A stretch of DNA of 64,000 bases from Eledone cirrhosa. Taxonomy: Eukaryota. The notes beneath the pieces were generated by a model. It saw only the letters and a program-made list of their open reading frames with translations, did no database searches and was not told where the DNA came from. The translations under genes and the position numbers were made by a program. Positions within the stretch are counted from its first letter, which is position 1, and the number at the start of each line of letters is the position of its first letter. Shown piece after piece: positions 15,804 to 61,990 of this stretch. The stretch spans positions 26,350,001 to 26,414,000 of the forward strand of contig OZ024758.1 of NCBI GenBank assembly GCA_964016885.1. The letters are read 5' to 3'.

Positions 15804-17105
15804 AGGGAGTATAACATGCAGTTATTGTAGGTTCACCTGAGTGAGCACTCGTTGCATAGTTTCCAGTCTTTAAAGAGGTGTAGGACTAAGCAGAGTGTAA
15901 ATATAATAGTAAAAGGACGATTTGTTGTCTTCATAATTGTCTCTACTTTAGGCACAAGGCCAGCAATTACCCAGTGCATTACTGGTACTTTATTTTATCG
16001 ACCCCGTAAGGATGAAAGGCAAAGTCAACCTCGGCGGGATTTGAACTCAGATCGTAAAGGGACGTAACTATGCGGGAAAGCATGGCGTCCGACCCTCTAC
16101 CGATACTGCCAATCCACCGCCCTAACATGGCGTCCGACCCTCTACTGATACTGCCAATCCACCACCCTAGCATGGCGTCCGGCCCTCTACTGATACTGCC
16201 AATCCACCACCCTAGCATGGCGTCCGGCCCTCTACTGATACTGCCAATCCATCACCCTAGCATGGTGTCCAACCCTCTACTGATACTGCCAATCCACCAC
16301 CCTAGCATGGCATCTGACCCTCTACCGATACTGCCAATCCACCACCCTAGCATGGCATCTGACCCTCTACCGATACTGCCAATCCACCACCCTAGCATGG
16401 CGTCCGACCCTCTACCGATACTGCCAATCCACCACGCTAGCATGGCGTCCGACCCTCTACCGATACTGCCAATCCACCACCCTAACATGGCGTCCGACCC
16501 TCTACCGATACTGCCAATCCGCCGCCCTAACATGGCGTCCGACCCTCTACCGATACTGCCAATCCACCACCCTAACATGGCGTCCGACCCTCTACCGATA
16601 CTGCCAATCCGCCGCCCTAACATGGCGTCCGACCCTCTACTGATACTGCCAATCCACCACCCTAACATGGCGTCCGACCCTCTACTGATACTGCCAATCC
16701 GCCGCCCTAACATGGCGTCCGACCCTCTACCGATACTGCCAATCCACCACCCTAACATGGCGTCCGACCCTCTACTGATACTGCCAATCCGCCGCCCTAA
16801 CATGGCGTCCGACCCTCTACCGATACTGCCAATCCACCACCCTAACATGGCGTCCGACCCTCTACCGATACTGCCAATCCACCACCCTAACATGGCGTCC
16901 GACCCTCTACCGATACTGCCAATCCATGTCTTCATAATGCCCTATAGGTTCACTCTGTCATTACCACAACAGAGGTCCGACGAGCTTTTGATTCCAGAGT
17001 CGGGCTAGATCAATACAGATCGAACCTTGAGCTGATCAATAGCAAAACGCGTATCACTACTCAATAAACGAAATGAAGACATAATAAATCATCCTTTTAT
17101 TATAT
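15801..17105. mobile_element. Penelope-like fold-back fragment (same family as 61595-61990) interrupted by an S2 SINE
   Basis: 15903-15933 is inverted relative to 17073-17105; shares gatcaatacagatcgaaccttgagctgatc...aaacgcg with 61746-61800; flanked by (TA)n. Confidence 0.65.
15934..16926 (-). mobile_element. tRNA-derived SINE S2 whose 5' head is amplified as a 45-bp minisatellite (about 19 units, 16081-16926)
   Basis: TSD tgtcttcataat on both sides; unit catggcgtccgaccctctaccgatactgccaatccaccaccctaa. Confidence 0.9.
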
Positions 17106-17160
17106 ATATATATACGATATATTAACAAATGGAAACTATATTTATAAAACCATATTTATT

Positions 17161-17217
17161 TCATTATACATATTTCAAGGACACCAAGTTAAATTATGGT
17201 GTGCTTTCATCAGATAA
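17161..17217 (-). ncRNA. Minimal type-I hammerhead ribozyme in the left arm of fold-back element 17111-17560
   Basis: UUAU-CUGAUGA-AAG(cacacca...uggugu)cCUU-GAAA-UAUGUA-UA/AUGA. The mirror copy at 17364-17420 has AUGAUGA instead of CUGAUGA. Confidence 0.75.
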
Positions 17218-17688
17218 AATATAATATAGAGCAGTTTTATAAATATATATTGACATACCCTTAAAAGAATGCAACCATTACTGTTGGAAGCTCCAGGATA
17301 GTAATGGTTGCATTCTTTAAGGGTATGTCAATATTTATTTATAAAACTGCTCTATATTATATTTTATATGATGAAAGCACACCATAATTTAACTTGGTGT
17401 CCTTGAAATATGTATAATGAAATAAATATGGTTTTATAAATATAGTTTCCATTTGTTAATATATCGTATTTTTACTCCAATTATTTGTTGAGTGCTTTAT
17501 ATCAGTTATAAAAATATTTGTTTGTTGTATCCCAACAATTTAAATAGAACTCTTACATATATATATATATATATATCTGAAGTATTTCCGTAGGAAAGGT
17601 ACAGGAAAAGAGAGTGCTCTATGTAGGTTACAGAGCTTATTTGTTATGTAATAAAATAATTATCTTATGTTGTTTATTACATAACTAA

Positions 17689-17719
<31 letters not shown>

Positions 17720-17798
17720 GATTCAATCGGAGGTAACCACAGTTAGTAAGGTACTCATTGCATTAGTAGAGTGTAAACATCAAGTTTAATATAGAAAT

Positions 17799-17850
17799 GG
17801 CTTCTACAGGACTAGAACTGTTTCATTCAAAAGAAATCATCAGGAAAGCC
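17799..17850 (-). ncRNA. Type-I hammerhead-like motif in element 17720-17875
   Basis: GGCUUUC-CUGAUGA-UUUCUUUUGAAU-GAAA-CAG(uucuaguc)CUG-UA/GAAGCC; stem II is weak (U-U closing). Family copies at 35515-35706 and 52270-52415. Confidence 0.6.
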
Positions 17851-17896
17851 CTGATGATCTGATGATTTCTTTTGGACACACATATATATATATATA

Positions 17897-19149: not shown

Positions 19150-19558
19150 TATCATCATCATCATCATTTTACATCTGCTTTTCCCTGCTTGCAAGGGTGG
19201 GACGGGAACTGATTCTGGCTTGATTTCTACAGCTGGATGCCCTTCGTAACACCAACCTCATTTACAGTGAGTGCTGGGTGCTTTTTTTTTCCGTGGCGCC
19301 TACACGTCCACTTTACAGTGTGGGCTGGGGGCTTTTTTGCTGTGGCACCTCCACGACCACTTTGCAGTGTGGGCTGGGGGCTTTTTTGCCATGGCACCTC
19401 CACGACCTATCATCTCATTTCTACAGCTGAGTAAACTGGAGCAATGTGAAATAAAGTGTCTTGCTCAAGGAAACAACACATCACCCGGTCTGAGAATTGA
19501 ACTCACAACCTTTTGATTGCAAGCCCAATGCTCTAACCACTAAGCCATGTGCCTCCAT
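19150..19558 (-). mobile_element. tRNA-derived SINE S1
   Basis: Head GGAGGCACATGGCTTAGTGGTTAGAGC...GAGTTCAATTCTC (Pol III A/B boxes), CORE-like cttgagcaagacacttt, RTE-type tail. Copies at 26490-26830, 29152-29497, 32050-32400, 32600-32970, 41333-41658, 49300-49687, 61234-61582, 61992-62160 and 63927-64000. Confidence 0.9.
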
Positions 19559-19560
19559 AT

Positions 19561-19664
<104 letters not shown>

Positions 19665-20799
19665 CAGAGAGGGTGGGGTAAGATACCAGGTGAACCATAA
19701 CCCACCAGAGTACTCAATACTTAGGGTAGTAGAGTGGGTAATATGAAAAGATTCAGGACCCCGATGGCTGAGCTCTGGCGGTTTCAACATCTAGATCCGT
19801 GTGTTCCAAAAAAAAAAGGTATACACACTTTAACAGCATTCTAATAAATATTGCCTGTACGGGTAATCAAAGTGTGTATACATTTTTTGGAGACACCCTG
19901 TGTGTGTGTGTGTGTGTGTGTTATTAGTACAGATTAAAAGTTTAAGCAATAAATTACTGCTTTTACCTCTCATAATATCAAATCTACAAGATTTTGATAT
20001 TATTTATTTTGAGAACAATACCTTAACGTCAGTATGAGCAGCCAGTTACAGCTGGTTTGAACAGAAATAGGTGAGACAATTCTGGCCAGATATGGCTAGT
20101 TTAAATGCTAAAGGGTTAACATATTTAGTGACCGTCACTCCTGAATTCCTACATAATTGAATCAAAAGACTAAAAAAGCCAGGTGACGATGTACTCTCAC
20201 CAGTACACTAAACGTTGATGTAGTTTGTGCACCTGGGTGCATATCCTGAAACCCTATATATCCACATAGACTTCTCTCAGTGTTTAACAAATTATACCTC
20301 ATGGGAACCTATTAAAGGTCTTTTTATTTTTTTCAGATCAACAAAGATAAGTAATATAGAGTTGTTTATGCCTGGTTAAGAACTACTCCTGTGGTTGTTT
20401 TTACTAGAAACATAACACCATAACTATTGTAATTATATATAAATCAGGGGCAGTGGAACGTCTCACCACCCCCTCCCTCCAAATAATTATATTTTTCTCC
20501 CCAAACTACCAAAACACACATCTATTTGGATATGCGCTACAATTTATGTACATATTATGTTTATCACATGTCAAAGTTTTCTGACCATTTTAGAGTGCAA
20601 AGAGCTAAACTAATGACTACAACTAAATTGACCAAATTTGCATTAGAAATGCTTCCACCACCCCTGTAAATATGCATCTTATTAAATCCTTCTTATTTGA
20701 GTTTAGAATTTACTGCGATAACGTTTGCCTCTAATTTACTAGTAGTGTAATTAGCAACTGTAAAATGTGTAATTGGAAACAAAGTCTATACAGAACTAC

Positions 20800-23627: not shown

Positions 23628-24708
23628 TAACCCTTTAGCATTTAAACTGGACATATCCAGCCAGAATTCTCTCACCTCTTTCTGTTTAAACCGGCCTTAA
23701 CAGGCCACTCATATTGACATTAACCCTCTAGTGTTCAAACCGACCAAACCGATCTACCCGTTTCTGTTGAAACTGGCCGTAACTGGTCGCTCAAACTTAT
23801 ATTAAGGTATTGTTCTGAAAATAAATACTTTCAAAATCTCATAGATTCGATATTATGTGAGATAAAGCCTTTACCATGAAAATATAATAGTATATATAGA
23901 GTAATGTGAATGCTAAAGGGTTAAGGTATTGTTCTCAAAATAAATAATATCAAAATCTCATAGATTCGATATTATATGAGATAAAGCCCTTACCATAAAA
24001 ATACAATAGTATATATAGAGTAATGTAAATGTTAAAGAATTAACGTTGGTATGAGTGGCCAGTTACAGCCAGTTTGAACAGAAAGAGGTGAGAGAATTTT
24101 GTCCAGTTACAGCCAGTTTCAACATAAAGAGGTGAGAGAATTTTGTCCAGTTACAGCCAGTTTCAACATAAAGAGGTGAGAGAATTTTGGCCAGTTACAG
24201 CCAGTTTGAACAGAAAGAGGTGAGAGAATTTTGGCCAGATACAGCCAGTTTGAACATAAAGAGGTGAGAGAATTTTGTCCAGTTACAGCCAGTTTCAACA
24301 TAAAGAGGTGAGAGAATTTTGGCCAGTTACAGCCAGTTTGAACATAAAGAGGTGAGAGAATTTTGGCCAGATACAGCCAGTTTGAACATAAAGAGGTGAG
24401 AGAATTTTGGCCAGATACAGCCAGTTTGAACATAAAACGGTGAGAGAATTCTGGCCAGATACAGCCAGTTTGAACATAAAGAGGTGAGAGAATTTTGGCC
24501 AGTTACAGCCAGTTTGAACATAAAAAGGTGAGAGAATTCTGACCAGATACAGCCAGTTTGAACATAAAGAGGTGAGAGAATTTTGGCCAGATACAGCCAG
24601 TTTGAACATAAAGAGGTGAGAGAATTTTGGCCAGTTACAGCCAGTTGAACATAAAAAGGTGAGAGAATTCTGGCCAGATACAGCCAGTTTAAATGCTAAA
24701 GGGGTTAA
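23628..24708. mobile_element. Nested piggyBac-type MITE cluster with a 44-bp minisatellite (24055-24690, about 14 units)
   Basis: Copy 23721-23924 sits in the internal TTAA of copy 23628-24043; an adjacent partial copy carries the array and ends ctaaaggggttaa. Confidence 0.85.
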
Positions 24709-25068: not shown

Positions 25069-25763
25069 CTGCTTGAGATCACTGTGTCCAAATTGCTGGG
25101 TACTAGCATAAAAAATACAATGGTACAGAGGCCCTAAATACACACACACATGCGTGTGCTTATATATATATATATGATGATGATGAAATATATAGCTTAC
25201 AAAACACTCTAGAGTGATTACTGTGCACTTAGGAGTCTTCATTAGGGAAATGGCCTTGTTCAGTATGTAAAGTAATTGGGGGGGGGGGGGGGGACTCCAT
25301 ACAGCATGCCCATTGAATACTATGAGTGCACAATAGGTGTAGTAGTATTGTAGGCAGGCTAACATAGAAGAGGCATTTTTTGTGTAGCAGATGTACAGAT
25401 GTACAAGGATAATTAGTACTAAGAGTATCAGTGAAATATACTGTTTCCAATCCAAGGAAGGTTCCATAGAAATAGTTGCTAGCTTCTAATTAGCAGTGGA
25501 AGAAAGTGGTCTCAGAGCATAGTAACGAAAATATGAATAAGTGGGTAGGGGAGTTCAGGGAGCTACTACCTGTATTGGTAATAAAGGGACTCTTCAATCT
25601 GAGCAAAGGGTGGACTGTATGATGCCTAGATGGCAGTGAGACATGGGCAATGAATGGAGAAGATGTGTAAAGACTAGAAAGAAAGAAGTGAGCATGTTCT
25701 GTTGAATGTGCAATGTTAGTGTACATAATGGAAATATTGATAAGAAAGTAAATTTAATTATAA

Positions 25764-26202
25764 TGATGCTGCATGGTAGTGAGACATGGGCAGCAACTGC
25801 AGAAGATATGCGACGGCTGGAGAGAAAAGAAGCAAGTATGCTCCGTTGGATGTGCAATGTCAATGTACGTGAACGACCAAGCATAGACGAGTTGAGAAAG
25901 AAACTGGGTATAAGAGGGATAAGTTGTGGTGTGCAGGAGAGAAGGCTGAGATGGTATGGACATGTGATGCGCATGGAGGATGACCGATGGGTGAAGAAGT
26001 GCCAGGAAGTCCCAGTGGAGGGAAGACGCAGTAGAGGAAGATCACGAAAGACATGGGCGGAGGTGGTGAGAGCAGACCTCAGATCGCTGAAACTCACGGA
26101 GGAGATGACGAAGGACCGTGACAAGTGGAGAGATGCTGTGCTGAATAGGACCCGTCCAACCCTTGCAAGCAGGGAAAAGCGGACGTAAAATGATGATGAT
26201 GA
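25764..26202 (+). mobile_element. RTE LINE 3' end (family A), preceded by an older RTE remnant at about 25540-25740
   Basis: MLHGSETWA...ASMLRWMC...RLRWYGHVMRMEDD...GRSRKTW...DRDKWR; (ATG)n tail directly after the stop. Confidence 0.92.
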
Positions 26203-26242
26203 TATATATAGTTATGTAATAAACAACATAAGACAATTATTC

Positions 26243-26309
26243 CATTTACCAAAGGTTTCACGAAGACAGACGAGCTCGACAGAGACGTCTGAAATCGCTC
26301 ATCAGAATG
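26243..26309 (-). ncRNA. Type-I hammerhead ribozyme in the left arm of fold-back element 26207-26480
   Basis: CAUU-CUGAUGA-GCGA(...cagacg...cgucug...)UCGU-GAAA-CC-UUU-GG-UA/AAUG: complete core and three stems. The mirror arm lacks the first core C. Confidence 0.82.
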
Positions 26310-27119
26310 AAATTTTATTTGATGAGCGATTTCAGACGCCTGTGTCGAGCTCGTCTGTCTTCGTGAAACCTTTGGTAAATGGAATAATTATCTTATGTTG
26401 TTTATTACATAACTATATATATCTGTAGCTTACATAGAGCACTCTCCTTTTTTTACCTTTCCTACGCAAACACTTAATATATATATCATCGTCATCATCA
26501 TTTCATTTTACGTCCGCTTTTCCCTACTTGCAAGGGTGGGACGGGAACTGATTCTAGCTTGATTTCTACAGCTGGATGCCCTTCCTAACACCAACCTCAT
26601 TTACAGTGAGTGCTGAGTGCTTTTTTGCCGTGGCACCTCCACGACCACTTTACAGTGGAATGATAGGGACCCCAGTCCCTATCATCTCATTTCTACAGCT
26701 GAGTAAACTGGAGCAATGTGAAATAAAGTGTCTTGCTCAAGGAAACAACACATCACCCGGTCTGAGAATTGAACTCACAACCTTTCAACTGCAAGGCCAA
26801 TGCTCTAACCTCTAAGCCATGTGCCTCCATATATAGCACCAATACCACACTGTAAAGTGATCATGTAGATGTCATGACAAAAAGCACCCAGCACACACTG
26901 TAATTGTGGTTAGCATTAGGAAGGGCATCCAGCTGTAGAAATCTAGCCAGAAACAGTTCTGTATGAACAGGACATGGTTATCTGACCCAACTTGCCTCAA
27001 ATGGGACAACCTGTCTAACCCATGCTAGCATGGAAAGTGGACGTTAAACAATAATGATGATATATATATATACCAAGATATTATATGAATGGAAACTAAT
27101 TTATAAAACCATATTTATC

Positions 27120-27176
27120 TTATTATATATATTTCAAGGGCACCCAAGCCAGCCTTGGTGCACTTTCATCAGATAA
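27120..27176 (-). ncRNA. Minimal type-I hammerhead ribozyme in element 27070-27258
   Basis: UUAU-CUGAUGA-AAG(ugcacc...ggugc)cCUU-GAAA-UAUAUA-UA/AUAA; palindromic loop III; related to the 17161 motif. Confidence 0.8.
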
Positions 27177-27254
27177 AATACAAAGTGTTGAGTGATCTAA
27201 ATCAGTTATAAGCATTTATGTTTGTCGGAATTCCAACAAATTAAATACAAATTC

Positions 27255-27311
<57 letters not shown>

Positions 27312-31585: not shown

Positions 31586-33031
31586 AACAAGATTTGTAAA
31601 AGAATTCCAAAAGCTATCAATAAAGTAAAACTGAAGCCTGAAATCTGATCCAGTGACCCTAGTAAATATTTTACAGCTAACTTTATCTGGTTACCATGTA
31701 AAGCTACAAAATCATATATCCATTCTCTTACATCACTAGTTGACATTTTCACTTGTCCCACTTCCTTTTATACAAATTCACTACAAAAACACACTTTTTT
31801 TTTTTTTATCTCCACAACAACAGAATCCTCTTTTTTTTGTTAATCTTTTGTAGAATCTTTCTCAACTACAACTGGAACACAAATAATTCTACAGATGTTA
31901 CCAACATAAAAACTGTTACTATCTTCAACACTACTACTTTACTTTTCAGCTCAAACTTATTGCCATATTGCTATGTATTTCTCTCTTTACAGACTTGTTT
32001 GTACCTATGAACCCACTAACACATAGGTTATTTTATGCATTTTATTTATATCATCATTTCATCATCATTTCATTTTTACGTCCGCTTTTTCCCTGCTTGC
32101 AAGGGTGGGACGGGAACTGATGCTGGCTTGATTTCTACAGCTGGATGCCCTTCCTAACACCAACCTCATTTACAGTGAGTGCTGGGTGCTTTTTTGCCGT
32201 GGCACCTCCACGACCACTTTGCAGTGGAATGATAGGGACCCCAGTCCCTGTCATCTCATTTCTACAGCTGAGTAAACTGGAGCAATGTGAAATAAAGTGT
32301 CTTGCTCAAGGAAACAACACATCACCCGGTCTGAGAATTGAACTCACAACCTTTCGATTGCAAGGCCAATGCTCTAACCACTAAGCCATGTGCCTCCATA
32401 TATACTATTATAAAGATTATGTACTTAGAATCCTCAGAGAAGAAACATACCTAACTTTAGTCACTACCTTAAATTTATAACGAAAGGCCTTCAAAATGTT
32501 TTTAAATAAACGTACAGTATATTATTAATTATACAATATGTACATTCATATATACATCCCTATTTCAGAGCACCAACACAAATATATATGTATATATATC
32601 ATCATCACCATCATCACCGTTTTTTACGTCCGTTCTTCCACGCTAGCATGGGTTAGACAGGTTGTCCTGTTGTGGGCAGTGTCCGGTCGACTGACCTTGT
32701 CTTGCTCTTACCGGAACTGATTCTGGCTTGATAGCTGGATGCCCTTCCTAACACCAACCTCATTTACAGTGAGTGCTGGGTGCTTTTTTTCCGTGGCGCC
32801 TACATGTCCACTTTACAGTGAGGACTGGGTGCTTTTTTGCCGTGGCACCTCCACGACCACTTTGCAGTGGAATGATAGGGACCCCAGTCCTATCATCTCA
32901 TTTCTACAGCTGAGTAAACTGGAGCAATGTGAAATAAAGTGTCTTGCTCAAGGAAACAACACATCAGTTGGTCCGAGATATATATATATATATAAAGAAG
33001 AAATTAAAAGATGGTTAAAAAAGTTCCATAT

Positions 33032-33098
33032 ATTTTATTAGGCGCATTTCGAAAATAACATCATCCTGGGACAAAATTGTGTTCTCATCAGATAAAAT
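33032..33098 (-). ncRNA. Minimal type-I hammerhead motif in element ~33000-33255
   Basis: AUUUUAU-CUGAUGA-GAA...UUC-GAAA-UGCGCC-UA/AUAAAAU; 7-bp stem I; stem III has one mismatch relative to a UGCGCA palindrome. Confidence 0.7.
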
Positions 33099-33252
33099 AA
33101 GGTAACATATGAGGCCTAAAAATACTTGTGAATAAAAAAAGTATCCAGTCAACATATATTCTTTATATATACTCCAGTTCTACCAACTGTTGAGTGCTAC
33201 TTATCTGATATATGTATAGTTTTATTGTTCTACAATATTACTCACCTCCTAC

Positions 33253-33287
<35 letters not shown>

Positions 33288-33867: not shown

Positions 33868-34005
33868 GATATATAGTTATTTATTACACTAACAGGCTTA
33901 CTGGAGAGGTGTTTCATTGATATTGTCAACTCATTAATCCAGACTGATGAATTGAAACATGTGTCTCTGGTAAGCCAGATCTTTTAGTGTTATAAATAAC
34001 TATAT
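33868..34005. mobile_element. Degenerate fold-back hammerhead element
   Basis: Plus arm CCAGA-CTGATGA-att-GAAA-CATGTG-TC/TCTGG (stem II deleted); minus arm keeps stem II GTTGA/TCAAT but has a mutated core; outer arms are inverted. Confidence 0.6.
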
Positions 34006-34699: not shown

Positions 34700-35345
34700 C
34701 GCTATAGAAGTGGTGGATAGCTTCCGGTACCTAGGAGATCAGATTAGCATGGGAGGAGGGTGTTCTCCGAGGCCATAGTATCTAGAATAAGGACGGGTTG
34801 GAAGAAGTTTAGGGAGCTGCTTCCTCTGTTGACGAAGAAGGGTTTCTCCCTGCGTACGAAAGGCCGGTTGTATGATGCCTGTGTGAGGAGCGGGATGCTG
34901 CATGGTAGTGAGACATGGGCAGCAACCGCAGAGGATATGCAACGGCTGGAGAGAAATGAGGCAAGCATGCTCCGTTGGATGTGCAGTGTAAATGTGCGTG
35001 AACGACCCAGCATAAATGTGTTGAGAGAGAAACTGTGTCTGAGAGGGATAGAATGTAGTGTACGGGAGAGGAGACTGAGGTGGTATGGACATGTGATGCG
35101 CATGGAGGATGACCGATGGGTGAAGAAGTGCCAGGAAATGCCAGTTGAAGGAAGACGTGGTAGAGGTAGACCACTAAAAACATGGGCGGAGGTGGTGAGA
35201 ACAGACCTCAGATCATTGAAGCTCACGGTGGAGATGACGAGGGACCGTGACGAGTGGAGAGATGCTGTGCTGAATAAGACCCGTCCCACCCTTGCAAGCA
35301 GGGAAAAGCGGACGTAAAATGATGATGATGATGATGATGATGATG
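34700..35345 (+). mobile_element. RTE LINE 3' ~650 bp (family A), open frame
   Basis: VVDSFRYLGDQIS...SRIRTGWKKFRELLPLL...KGRLYDACVRSGMLHGSETWA...RLRWYGHVMRM...KTW; (ATG)n tail. Confidence 0.95.
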
Positions 35346-35514: not shown

Positions 35515-35706
35515 CAGGTTCAATTGGGGCTAACCACAGTAAGTAAGGTACTCAATACATAGTAGAGTATATACAATATTTAATATAGAAATGTCTTCTA
35601 CAGGACTAGAATTGTTTCATATGAAGGAAATCATCAGGAAAGCCTGATGATTACCTTTGAATGAAACAGTTTTAGTCCTGTATAAGCCATTTCTATATTA
35701 AATATT
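35515..35706. mobile_element. Fold-back hammerhead element (family of 17720-17875)
   Basis: Inverted arms 35575-35638 and 35643-35706; CTGATGA...GAAACA...CTGTA on both strands. Confidence 0.65.
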
Positions 35707-44260: not shown

Positions 44261-45868
44261 ATGATAAAAGCTGACCTTGCGCAACTGAACCTCTCAAAGA
44301 CGATGACACGGGCATTAAGCAGTAATACAGAAGACATGTCTTCCCATGCACACAGTCGCAAACATACATCTAGTAAGCACCTCTTAACCACTTTACCTCC
44401 ACCCACTCACTCCTGTCCACATCAACCTTACACTGTAAATAAAATATATCCAGCCCTCACTGTAAAGTGGTCATGTAGGCGTCACAACAAAAAGCACCCA
44501 GCCCACACTGTAAAGTGGTCATGTAGGCGTCACAATAAAAAGCACCCAGCCCACACTGTAAAGTGGTCATGTAGGTGTCACAACAAAAAGCACCCAGCCC
44601 ACACTATAAAGTGGTCATGTAGGTGTCACAACAAAAAGCACCCAGCCCACACTGTAAAGTGGTTATGTAGGTGTCACAACAAAAAGTACCCAGCCCTCAC
44701 TGTAAAGTGGTCATGTAGATGTCACAACAAAAAGCACCCAGCCCTCACTGTAAAGTGGTCATGTAGGTGTCACAACAAAAAGCACCCAGCCCACACTGTA
44801 AAGTGGTTATGTAGGTGTCACAACAAAAAGTACCCAGCCCTCACTGTAAAGTGGTCATGTAGATGTCACAACAAAAAGCACCCAGCCCTCACTGTAAAGT
44901 GGTCATGTAGGTGTCACAACAAAAAGCACCCAGCCCTCACTGTAAAGTGGTCATGTAGGCGTCTGAACAAAAAGCACCCAGCCCTCACTGTAAAGTGGTC
45001 ATGTAGGCGTCTGAACAAAAAGCACCCAGCCCTCACTGTAAAGTGGTCATGTAGGTGTCACAACAAAAAGCACCCAGCCAACACTGTAAAGTGGTCATGT
45101 AGGTGTCACAACAAAAAGCACCCAGCCCTCACTGTAAAGTGGTCATGTAGGTGTCACAACAAAAAGCACCCAGCCCTCACTGTAAAGTGGTTATGTAGGT
45201 GTCACAACAAAAAGTACCCAGCCCTCACTATAAAGTGGTCATGTAGGTATCACAACAAAAAGCACCCAGCCCACACTGTAAAGTGGTCATGTAGGTGTCA
45301 CAACAAAAAGCACCCAGCCCACACTGTAAAGTGGTCATGTAGGCGTCTGAACAAAAAGCACCCAGCCCACACTGTAAAGTGGTCATGTAGGCGTCACAAC
45401 AAAAAGCACCCAGCCCACACTGTAAAGTGGTCATGTAGGTGTCACAACAAAAAGCACCCAGCCCACACTGTAAAGTGGTCATGTAGGTGTCACAACAAAA
45501 AGCACCCAGCCCTCACTGTAAAGTGGTCATGTAGGTGTCACAACAAAAAGCACCCAGCCCACACTGTAAAGTGGTCATGTAGGCGTCTGAACAAAAAGCA
45601 CCCAGCCCACACTGTAAAGTGGTCATGTAGGCGTCACAATAAAAAGCACCCAGCCCACACTGTAAAGTGGTCATGTAGGCATCACAATAAAAAGCACCCA
45701 GCCCACACTGTAAAGTGGTCATGTAGGCGTCACAATAAAAAGCACCCAGCCCACACTGTAAAGTGGTCATGTTGGCGTCACAATAAAAAGCACCCAGCCC
45801 ACATTGTAAAGTGGTCATGTAGGCGTCACAACAAAAAGCACCCAGCCCACACTGTAAATATGGTTGGA
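44261..45868 (+). repeat. Old RTE 3' end whose UTR segment is expanded into a 48-bp minisatellite (44450-45858, about 29 units)
   Basis: IKADLAQLNLSKTMT ORF remnant; unit cagcccacactgtaaagtggtcatgtaggtgtcacaacaaaaagcacc. Confidence 0.9.
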
Positions 45869-50766: not shown

Positions 50767-52020
50767 ATCATCATCATCATTTTACGTCTGCTTTTCCGTT
50801 TGCAAGGGTGGGACGGGTCTTATTCAGCACAGCATCTCTCCACTTGTCAGTCTTTCGTCATCTCCACCGTGAGCTTCAGCGATCTGAGGTCTGTTCTTAC
50901 CACCTCCGCCCATGTTTTTCGTGGTCTACCTCTACCACGTCTTCCTTCAACTGGCATTTCCTGGCACTTCTTCACCCAGCGGTCATCCTCCATGTGCATC
51001 ACATGTCCATACCACCTCAGTCTCCTCTCTCGCACACTACATTCTATCCCTCTCAGACAGTTTCTCTCTCAACACATCACATGTCCATACCACCGCAGTC
51101 TCCTCTCTCGCACACTACATTCTATCCCTCTCAGACACAGTTTCTCTCTCAACACATCACATGTCCATACCACCTCAGTCTCCTCTCTCGCACACTACAT
51201 TCTATCCCTCTCAGACACAGTTTCTCTCTCAACACATCACATGTCCATACCACCTCAGTCTCCTCTCTCGCACACTACATTCTATCCCTCTGACACAGTT
51301 TCTCAACACATCACATGTCCATACCACCTCAGTCTCCTCTCTCGCACACTACATTCTATCCCTCTCAGACACAGTTTCTCTCTCAACACATCACATGTCC
51401 ATACCACCTCAGTCTCCTCTCTCGCACACTACATTCTATCCCTCTCAGACACAGTTTCTCTCTCCAAACATCACATGTCCATACCACCTCAGTCTCCTCT
51501 CTCGCACACTACATTCTATCCCTCTCAGACACAGTTTCTCTCTCAACACATCACATGTCCATACCACCGCAGTCTCCTCTCTCGCACACTACATTCTATC
51601 CCTCTCAGACACAGTTTCTCTCTCAACACATCACATGTCCATACCACCTCAGTCTCCTCTCTCGCACACTACATTCTATCCCTCTCAGACACAGTTTCTC
51701 TCTCAACACATCACATGTCCATACCACCGCAGTCTCCTCTCTCGCACACTACATTCTATCCCTCTCAGACACAGTTTCTCTCTCAACACATCACATGTCC
51801 ATACCACCGCAGTCTCCTCTCTCGCACACTACATTCTATCCCTCTCAGACACAGTTTCTCTCTCAACACATCACATGTCCATACCACCTCAGTCTCCTCT
51901 CCCGTACACTACATTCTATCCCTCTCAGACACAGTTTCTCTCTCAACACATCCATGTTGGGTCGTTCACACACATTGACATTGCACATCCAACGGAGCAT
52001 GCTTGCCTCATTTCTTTCTA
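50767..52020 (-). mobile_element. RTE family A 3' end with an 80-bp coding segment amplified about 12 times (51001-51950)
   Basis: Flanks are colinear with 34950-35330; the unit corresponds to 35017-35096. Confidence 0.93.
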
Positions 52021-52414
52021 TACTAGGTGCTTATTTTCATGGCACCAGCAATGTCATTCTACAGTTGTAATGTCACTGGTGCCAAGTTGTGTCAGCCTTT
52101 GTCTTTCTCTTGGACAACATTGGTGGCAAGTAGAGAGAAAGAGACTGGCCTGCATGGGCAACTGGTGGTCTTCCACAAACAAACCCTTCCCAGTCTTGTG
52201 CCTTGGTGGGGTCTTTACCGCCCACCCCCTCTCTCTCTCTCTATATATATATATATATGATAAGTTATCCCAGGTTTAATCGGGGGGTAGCCACAGTAAG
52301 TAAGGTACTCAATACATAGCAGAGTATAAATGTTTTAATATAGAAAAGCTTCTACAGGCTAAATGATAAGTTATTCCGGGTTGAATCAGAGGGTAAACCA
52401 CAGTAAGTAAGGTA

Positions 52415-59816: not shown

Positions 59817-61594
59817 CATACAAATATATTCTTTGTACTCTTGACAAAGAGACTATGATGGCAGCATATTTCATGTTTACAATCAACTCGTTTACTCAGA
59901 ATATTTTAAAATAACAATAGAGATTCAAATGTAAGAAGAGACAAAAGTTATAATAATTGGCTTTCGAAATAAAATAAAATGAAAATCATTTTATTTCTGA
60001 TAATAGCAACATCTATCATAACTTTTCTGTTAATAGTAACATTTAATTGTTGGTGGATAGTAGCTGTTAGGTTTGAATATTTGATGTTAGAATGTTAGAT
60101 AGACATAGGGAGGTTTTTCTTCTTCATAACAGAATAAATGTTTGACAGTAGCTATGAATCAGCTATGAAAACAAAAACTTACTAATGATTAAAAGATCAT
60201 ATCCAGAAGCAAATAACAGAAAAGAGTTGGTTGGCATTGGCACTTTAAGTACTTATATATCAAAGAAGGGTGACAAACATGAAGAGAAAAATGATAAATG
60301 AGTAAAAGAGGCCAAAGAAAGAGTGGAATAAAGAGATAAAAAGAAAATCTACTTCTGATTGATAAAAATAGGTAAATTTACTTCATAGTTAACCCTTTAT
60401 CATTTAAACCGGCCGTATCCAGCCAGAACTCTCTCACCTCTTTCTGTTCAAACTGGCTGTAACTAGCCACTCATACTGATGTGAAGGTATTGTTCTCAAA
60501 ATAGATATCAAAATCTCGTAGATTCGATATCATGTAAGATAATTATGTGAGGCAAAGCCTTTACTGTGAAAATATAATAGTAAATATAGAGTATTGTAAA
60601 TTCTAAGGGTTAAAGAAGGGTGACAAAGATGAAGAGAAAAAATGATAAAAAGAAAATCTAGTTCAACGTAGATATGTTAAATATATCCTTTGATTGATAG
60701 AAATAGGTAAATTTACTTTATAGTTAAAGCATATATTGTCAATATATTACTTATAATTGGTGTTCAGTAATCTTATATGATACATAAAGCATTTACATAT
60801 GTGTGTGTATATATATATCATCATCATCATCATCATCGTTTAACGTCCATCTTCCACACTTGCATGGGTTTGGACGGGAGTTTTCCCACTTGAGGCAAGA
60901 TTGGTTGTCTTGCTCGCATAGGACTGTCTGGCGGGTTTTCTATGGCTGGATGCCCTTCCTAACACCAACCACGTTTACAGTGTGGACTGGGAGGTTTTTA
61001 CCGTGTTACCTACATGGCCACATTACAGCGTGGACTGTCTGTTTTTTTGTCGTGACACCTACATGACCTCATTTGTTTCGGACTGGATGTTGTGGTACCA
61101 ACATAACTTTACATTGAAAGGGGTGGTGTGGATGGGGTGTGGGTAGTGGGGCAGGGGTGTATTTTTGTTAGAGGTGCCTACTTACTGTAGTAGGTTTCAC
61201 TTTGTACTTAGGTAAGGTATATATATATATATATGGAGGCACATGGCTTAGTGGTTAGAGCATTGGCCTTGCAATCGAAAGGTTGTGAGTTCACTTCTCA
61301 GACCAGGTGATGTGTTGTTTCCTTGAGCAAGAGACTTTATTTCACATTGCTCCAGTTTACTCAGCTGTAGAAATGAGATGATAGGGACTGGGGTCCCTAT
61401 CATTCCACTGCAAAGTGGTCGTGGAGGTGCCACGGAAAAAAAGCACCCAGCACTCACCGTAAATGAGGTTGGCGTTAGGAAGGGCATCCAGCTGTAGAAA
61501 TCAAGCCAGAATCAGTTCCCGTCCCACCCTTGCAAGCAGGGAAAAAGCGGACGTAAAATGAAATGATGATGATGATGATGATATATAATATATA

Positions 61595-61990
61595 TAGTTT
61601 AAAGATAACAAGGATGATAGGTTACTCCTTCATTACATTTATTGATAGGTGACGCGCGTTTCGCCACTGATCAGCTCAAGGTTCGATCTGTATCGATCTT
61701 ACCCGACTCTGTAATCTGCGGTTTGTCGGACCCCTTGTAATGGTAGATCAATACAAATCGAACCTTGAGCTAATCAGTGGCGAAACGCGCGTCACCTACC
61801 AATAAACGTAATGGAGGAGTAACCAATCGTCCTTGTTATCTTTTTACTATTATACACTCTGTCTCTGAAATGAACCTAAATGAAATGAACCTAAACATTG
61901 AGTGCTCACCCGGGTGAACCTACAGTAACTCCAAGTTACTGTAGGTACACCCGAGTGTACCTACAGTAACTCCAAGTTACACCCCCTGGA
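61595..61990. mobile_element. Fold-back Penelope-like pLTR fragment
   Basis: Arms of about 105 bp (61595-61699 and 61745-61852), each with GCGAAACGCGCGTC, the classic PLE minimal-hammerhead 3' half; CUGANGA half is absent. Confidence 0.72.

Follow-up and report, generated by a model that had tools for sequence, protein, structure and literature searches.

Published insertions of Penelope-like elements (PLEs) combine an inverted, 5'-truncated copy with a one-sided tail and a microsatellite target (PMC8557442). A junction palindrome between head-to-head copies has been described for Adineta vaga Penelope, and self-priming was proposed for the inverted pLTRs of that species (Arkhipova et al. 2013, PMC3846280). 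Truncated PLEs also give rise to paired hammerhead ribozymes on opposite strands, 100-700 bp apart (PMC4209133). Studies of the Anolis Poseidon element PAc indicate that the protein cuts and extends both target strands in vitro, that reverse transcription has two start sites bracketing the tail, that uncleaved RNA is the main template, and that hammerhead cleavage needs both the protein and core position C3 (Frangieh et al. 2024, PMC11167929). As monomers, or when no protein is present, hammerheads of PLEs often show weak activity or none (PMC4209133, PMC11167929), and dimerisation via helix III has been described for them (PMC4209133, PMC6765202). How PLEs make inverted copies and what the hammerhead contributes are both stated to be unresolved (PMC8557442, PMC11167929).

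The PLE clade most relevant here is Hydra, which is defined by protein motifs (RWK, DKT, a CxCX5C linker and no CCHH) together with RT phylogeny (Craig et al. 2021, PMC8557442). Counts taken by eye from the Hydra tables in the same source give a (TA)n preference in 26/27 listed families, a U before GAA in 17/25, a G10.1.U11.1 pair in 2/25 and a helix III of 3 bp capped by a UUU loop in at least 2/25. Naiads have the same (TA)n target but no canonical hammerheads (PMC8557442). In O. vulgaris, PLEs account for 6.83% of the genome (PMC13282606).

A fold-back with this anatomy lies in the window, the 64,000-nt stretch of Eledone cirrhosa DNA (contig OZ024758.1) analysed as a whole here. The preferred reading, held at a probability of roughly 0.85, is a truncated PLE insertion in which two hammerhead-bearing 3' ends stand head to head in a TA microsatellite, one of them with a tail. 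The mirror copy is then the standard inverted, 5'-truncated PLE copy rather than a dedicated switch, an origin that the first-pass annotation had missed. The features shared with PLEs are a type I hammerhead in a terminal repeat, a head-to-head inverted and 5'-truncated copy with a palindromic junction, and a tail at one end only, which measures 55-63 nt here against 30-40 bp in published cases.

The palindrome (26201-26423) is spacer-less, with arms at 26201-26312 and 26313-26423 and its axis at 26312/26313, and both arms read outward from the axis. The short arm, a PLE 3' end truncated on its 5' side at the edge of hammerhead helix I, runs on the minus strand (26211..26312) and abuts a TA run. 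The mirror arm, an inverted copy on the plus strand (26313..26413), carries a hammerhead without C3, with G12 at 26365 and GUA at 26375-26377. A palindromic hexamer common to both arms (26310-26315) marks the inversion junction (26310..26320). Aligned with each other, the arms differ in 5 of 112 columns, namely at 26309/26316, at the missing C3 and at 26285/26339, 26282/26342 and 26234/26390. Two of these five (26309/26316 and the missing C3) fall within 8 nt of the axis, a clustering with P = 0.046. The window is AT-rich, with many microsatellites and repeats. The folding energy of the fold-back stands at z = -31.9, and 0 of 200 shuffles did as well. The differences at the junction also create an AATAAA on the minus strand (26319-26314), directly upstream of helix I; another occurs at 26406, and both would be buried in the hairpin.

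Hammerhead positions follow the standard numbering. An intact type I hammerhead occupies the minus arm (26239..26313), its helices and core read by descriptor and by folding. Helix I comprises 8 bp (26313-26306 with 26246-26239), one of them G.U; the core CUGAUGA spans 26305-26299, with C3 at 26305; helix II consists of 4 bp, a 3x3 loop and 6 bp; GAAA lies at 26259-26256, with G12 at 26259; and helix III (26256-26248) has 3 bp and a UUU loop. The triplet is GUA, and the cut is predicted after 26247, that is, between 26247 and 26246. The three helices (8, 4 and 3 bp) close on the core with the core-adjacent pairs formed, and the arm agrees with the type I core consensus C3-U4-G5-A6-N7-G8-A9, G12-A13-A14, A15.1-U16.1 and H17 (PMC3088659). 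Pair 10.1-11.1 is G.U in both arms (G10.1 at 26298 and U11.1 at 26260 on the minus arm), a point that the first-pass annotation did not mention. The alternative, G10.1-C11.1, is absent from 26239..26313; it is strongly preferred, not invariant, and is termed highly conserved in metazoan PLE hammerheads and retrozymes (PMC4209133, PMC7229834). CpG decay was considered as the source of the G.U pair and dropped, because both arms have it and Hydra-clade hammerheads show G.U as well. The plus arm lacks C3 through a one-base gap at 26319/26320. Both the hammerhead motif and the fold-back are real, as the first-pass annotation had held in calling the minus arm a full-core hammerhead with extended helix II, 3-bp helix III and GUA, and the plus arm a near-identical copy without C3.

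A strict hammerhead descriptor finds one site in the window, the minus arm, and none in 30 shuffles. A relaxed descriptor finds four sites against one match in 200 shuffles, and the three additional sites (17213 minus, 27172 minus and 33944 plus) are further intact type I hammerheads. The Rfam hammerhead models give no match within the fold-back even at E<=10 (0/13 and 0/122 matches), and they likewise miss the other hammerheads between 15000 and 37000. At gathering level the whole window yields no Rfam hammerhead, its one match being a tRNA-like SINE head. Among Rfam microRNA families the best match reaches 39.8 bits against a cut-off of 98, and the matches are of the generic hairpin kind.

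The two flanks and the tail complete the anatomy. Remnants of a (TA)n target are found at the left (26203..26210) and right (26477..26486) ends, so that for the insertion at 26201-26476 both flanks are TA runs, in which a target-site duplication cannot be read. The one-sided PLE tail (26422..26476, plus) ends at about 26476, carries a 13-nt word at 26433-26445 and is 85% identical to 17634-17569; a sister copy of the same family lies there (17578..17692). That copy bears the tail and a 13-nt arm on the minus strand and a 38-nt arm on the plus strand; it too sits in (TA)n with TA on both sides and has its tail on one arm only, and the hammerhead is not retained. Between mirror arm and tail lies an 8-nt TA run (26414..26421, plus), a mirror image of the left flank that stands in place of 8 nt present in the sister copy. 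Hydra termini agree with the sister copy over these positions, and the run was likely copied from target DNA. To the left stands a LINE 3' fragment with an (ATG)n tail (25706..26202, plus), which we take to be of RTE type and which supplies the first minus-strand T4, at 26190. A LINE frame elsewhere in the window (34748-35314) is about 90% identical to it at the DNA level. Among the 45 matches of that frame are named relatives in oyster and in Octopus bimaculoides (70% identity, covering 32% of the query), which points to an octopus-like mollusc as the probable host.

Several observations point to the Hydra clade in particular, and membership is probable, though not proven. The locus combines (TA)n insertion with the hammerhead motif. 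Hydra-clade elements (Hydra-2_Ajap, Hydra-1_Ajap, Penelope-13_HM, Penelope-17_HM) share with it a type I hammerhead near the 3' end, the frequent U before GAA (with G.U in two families), a short helix III, the (TA)n target, the inverted 5'-truncated copy and the spacing of the terminal 13-nt word; helix II, in contrast, is far longer at this locus, where about 39 nt separate the two halves of the core, and there is no ORF (PMC8557442). The 13-nt word lies 55 nt after the predicted cut, against 53 nt (counted by eye) at the 3' end of Hydra-2_Ajap, and it occurs also at the 5' end of Hydra-1_Ajap. By chance it would be expected about 0.009 times in the 584-kb supplement file of PMC8557442. Among the matches listed for its inner 8-mer, two of three are these Hydra termini and one is unrelated. 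The comparison of termini covered six new Hydra consensus sequences, the ends of Neptune, Poseidon and Nematis elements lying outside the file. A 15-nt core word of the arm is absent from the same supplement, in which line breaks could hide a match. Identity with Hydra-1_Obim, the only octopus Hydra family listed there, was rejected, as its hammerhead differs by eye.

No RT or GIY-YIG domain was found by Pfam in 300 scanned frames (507 frames of at least 45 aa in the window, of which 315 passed the complexity filter), which is expected of short, 5'-truncated 3' fragments. The same scan gave two weak matches below curated cut-offs and no host exon, and ARAGORN reported no genes in the window. 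With no such frame among those scanned, what ties the locus to an autonomous element is its anatomy and the 13-nt word compared by eye. The fold-back likely represents an uncatalogued Hydra-clade family in an octopus-like genome.

There are likenesses to other PLEs as well. Adineta vaga Penelope has the same head-to-head terminal repeats, junction palindrome and optional one-arm tail; its inverted repeats, however, flank ORF-bearing copies, often with readable target duplications, whereas only two short 3' ends are present here (PMC3846280). PAc likewise has a tail between two 3' ends, an AT-rich target and insertion across an uncleaved hammerhead, and a change of C3 abolishes its cleavage (PMC11167929). 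It belongs to a different clade, and its ORF starts within helix II, where no ORF start is evident in the present locus. The minimal hammerheads of metazoan PLEs and non-LTR retrozymes show the same type I topology with a weak, self-complementary, dimerisable helix III, but they differ from the locus in having G10.1-C11.1 rather than G.U, in pairs that are spaced rather than abutting, and in tandem arrays, of which there are none here (PMC4209133, PMC7229834).

About 11 other loci in the window show this anatomy or parts of it (12 with the fold-back itself, grouped by eye). Beside the fold-back and its sister copy (family A), family B includes 17107-17555, 27070-27257 and about 33000-33255, and family C includes 35515-35705, 17720-17890 and about 52260-52360; both repeat the layout of short arm, long arm and tail. 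Further loci with this layout or parts of it lie at 33872-34004, 61589-61950, 785-995 and 19660-19800. Four PLE-like pieces from different families are piled up in 17000-17890, mostly separated by microsatellites: a fragment of the 61589 family, a family B fold-back, the sister copy and a family C locus.

The individual loci preserve different parts of the ribozyme. The minus-strand hammerhead of 27070-27257 (C3 at 27172) is an intact type I motif with a fully palindromic helix III; being without a mirror arm, it is not caged in cis and would depend on a second molecule for dimerisation. At 17213, in a locus of the same family, the three helices are all preserved although the sequence has changed. 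A minimal PLE-type hammerhead on the plus strand (33933-33970) has a 1-bp helix II, a palindromic helix III and GUC, and a palindromic hexamer adjoins its helix I at the fold-back axis. Another fold-back family (61589-61854 and 17000-17065) has a hammerhead-like core with C at position 8 in both arms, a minimal G-C helix II and a palindromic helix III; a helix I is not apparent. In two related loci (785-913 and 19660-19800) the junction lies inside helix II, and only the 3' half of the hammerhead, with a 6-bp helix III, and the tail are kept. The tails of several families share a GAG-containing motif (near 940, 17488, 26435 and 33190 on the plus strand and 17621, 17758, 19717, 35555 and 52312 on the minus strand), which in folding predictions often closes a small hairpin with changed pairs (-2 to -8 kcal/mol). 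Similar words end Hydra-2_Ajap and Hydra-2_Amil, and the hairpin is a candidate protein-binding or RT-start element.

The position of the inversion junction relative to the hammerhead shows a pattern. In five of eight core-retaining loci, from four families, the junction falls within 13 nt upstream of core position 3, at the helix I edge (C3 at 26305, 27172, 35637, 17843 and 33944). In the other three it is more distant: about 75 nt at 17213, 23-62 nt at 33091 and about 48 nt at 61674, where the core is atypical. Four further loci (the sister copy, one of family C and two labelled F1 and F2) end downstream of core position 3 and lie outside this count. Under an assumed exponential truncation with a mean of 50, 100 or 200 nt, five of eight has P = 0.019, 0.0011 or 5e-5; with the two family C loci merged, four of seven has P = 0.053, 0.0057 or 5e-4. 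The pattern is statistically modest: it was noticed post hoc, the truncation null is assumed and family C helices were read by eye, and the initial count of five of six became five of eight, with weaker P, on adding 33091 and the atypical locus (E1). In D. virilis an intron end maps to the same helix I edge (PMC4209133). No account of junctions clustering at helix I was seen in the literature listings and texts covered.

One tentative interpretation, which we rate as rather improbable, is that the PLE hammerhead acts as a structural boundary and not just as a cutter, with cDNA ending or turning at the 5' edge of helix I. With similar reserve, the folded ribozyme might shield or define the template's 5' end, or might trigger self-priming.

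A variant of the PLE reading, and not an alternative to it, is that fold-back and tail together form a mobile, non-autonomous PLE derivative copied as a unit, so that junctions are inherited from a master copy and the shorter loci arise by internal deletion. The two family C loci share an identical junction (35640 and 17847), as this would predict, and the sister copy at 17.6 kb could be such a unit minus its centre. Junctions vary within families A and B, however, and a 103-bp hairpin would be a poor template for RT; copying as a unit is considered unlikely.

The near-perfect, TA-flanked palindrome is also of a size typical of MITEs, and a DNA fold-back transposon with long terminal inverted repeats at TA could carry a hammerhead by chance. 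The ends are asymmetric, with a tail on one arm only in three families, and arm lengths vary between copies; moreover, the tail resembles PLE termini and the hammerhead has PLE traits, which leaves a MITE origin very improbable. Descent from part of a non-LTR retrozyme (type I hammerheads in tandem repeats, with circular RNA) that was inverted later is scarcely credible, for although the hammerhead is near-canonical type I, retrozymes occur in molluscs (PMC7229834) and an origin from PLE pLTRs has been proposed for them (bioRxiv 10.64898/2026.07.22.740005), no tandem direct repeat covers the locus, the core occurs in only two copies within the window, on opposite strands, and two fixed 3' ends (the short end and the tail) are the signature of PLE insertion.

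A PLE insertion of this form could be built by the following route. A PLE protein acting in trans would nick the TA tract and copy uncleaved element RNA from two 3' start sites. The short arm would stem from cDNA begun at the inner start site, with the left TA nick as primer. This cDNA would run through the hammerhead, stop at the edge of helix I and fold back with a mispaired end, which may account for the loss of C3. Copying its own sequence, the folded-back cDNA would then extend back into the TA run of the target, and the last step would be its joining to a tail-only cDNA made at the right nick. Three observations support the fold-back route: the weak clustering of arm differences at the axis described above; the TA run of the long arm, which mirrors the left flank where the sister copy has other bases; and tail-only pieces joined to single arms at 27186 and 33154. 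Folding back of the cDNA is the least certain part of the mechanism, and the same sequence could have come about by later mutation, by conversion between the arms or from two cDNAs made separately. Simple decay does occur, as a family B locus lost C3 on its plus arm far from the axis (17368, C to A, one of eight arm differences there). In that locus and in the fold-back alike, the arm with the damaged C3 is the one that bears the tail.

The mirror arm has consequences for the ribozyme. A read-through transcript is predicted to form a hairpin of 103 bp (-168.5 kcal/mol), which supports computationally the earlier suggestion that a hairpin of about 100 bp would sequester the motif. In a free arm, the hammerhead fold is predicted to lie 1.9 kcal/mol above the ensemble (P ~0.045), with pair probabilities mostly above 0.85 for helices I and II and about 0.2 for helix III; the folding energy of the arm is itself unremarkable (z -1.66; 14 of 200 shuffles did as well). 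The modelled probability of the hammerhead fold is 0.044 with 11 nt of mirror arm, falls to ~1e-5 (1.5e-5) with 15 nt, and is between ~1e-66 and ~1e-65 in the whole fold-back. In any RNA read through the locus, the intact ribozyme is thus predicted to be paired shut by the mirror arm, and only a transcript starting within about a dozen nucleotides of the axis would set it free. As the arms stand head to head, the antisense arm would always be made first, and no kinetic window for co-transcriptional cleavage is expected. When two arms are co-folded in silico, they form a double hammerhead in which both cores are rebuilt via helix III, 3.9 kcal/mol below two monomers. Given how often monomeric or protein-free PLE hammerheads are weak or inactive, an inactive single arm would not refute hammerhead identity.

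A possible source of read-through RNA adjoins the locus. A tRNA-derived SINE (26487..26829, minus) points into the fold-back, with its A box at 26819 and B box at 26774. Under the usual Pol III rules for these boxes and for T4 termination, it is a candidate source of a transcript of about 640 nt, as no T4 occurs on the minus strand until 26190. The predicted 643-nt RNA would have 106 inter-arm pairs, and the minus-strand hairpin is modelled with an unbroken run of 81 bp and 69 paired A. Relative to three of the four other full heads listed, the A box at this SINE has one change. Such tRNA-headed SINEs are abundant in the window (26829, 32397, 41656 and 19556 on the minus strand, 61235 on the plus strand); at the 3' end they agree with the neighbouring LINE's tail, and the Rfam tRNA match (19490-19547) is one of their heads. 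Long minisatellite arrays are found at 16081-16926, 24056-24690, 44450-45858 and 50997-51957, of which the latter two correspond to internal parts of the SINE and the LINE.

These elements raise the possibility of a host-used RNA device, in which the hairpin would be transcribed from the SINE or a host intron and then processed by ADAR or Dicer, with possible release of the caged ribozyme. The orientation of the SINE, with both boxes and an open path to 26190, and the predicted pairing are in keeping with this idea, as is the very high level of octopus hyper-editing, most of it in inverted repeats (PMC5625713). PLE small RNAs are known in rotifers (PMC3846280). Against it, T4-free runs of 300 nt are common (26% of window positions), four other SINE copies run 362-606 nt from head to first T4, the A box is changed, and several other fold-backs in the window make the locus unexceptional; editing would also be expected to strike the core adenosines. 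A dedicated device is judged very improbable. Use of the hairpin by ADAR or Dicer is plausible, as for any inverted repeat, and would not be specific to this locus.

As a PLE insertion, the locus today is most likely an inert relic that, if transcribed, would yield a long hairpin rather than a cleaving ribozyme. Alone it is of little import, being most likely one of many PLE scars. It suggests, however, a hammerhead-bearing and probably Hydra-clade family that is uncatalogued and that Rfam does not detect, and fold-backs of this kind would offer ready substrates of long dsRNA to a lineage with extreme A-to-I editing. The clustering of junctions at helix I, together with the conserved tail hairpin, is a mechanistic lead of more value than the locus itself. 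If the boundary interpretation is true, PLE hammerheads would gain a non-catalytic role in determining the form of insertions, and every such fold-back would keep its own ribozyme locked within dsRNA.
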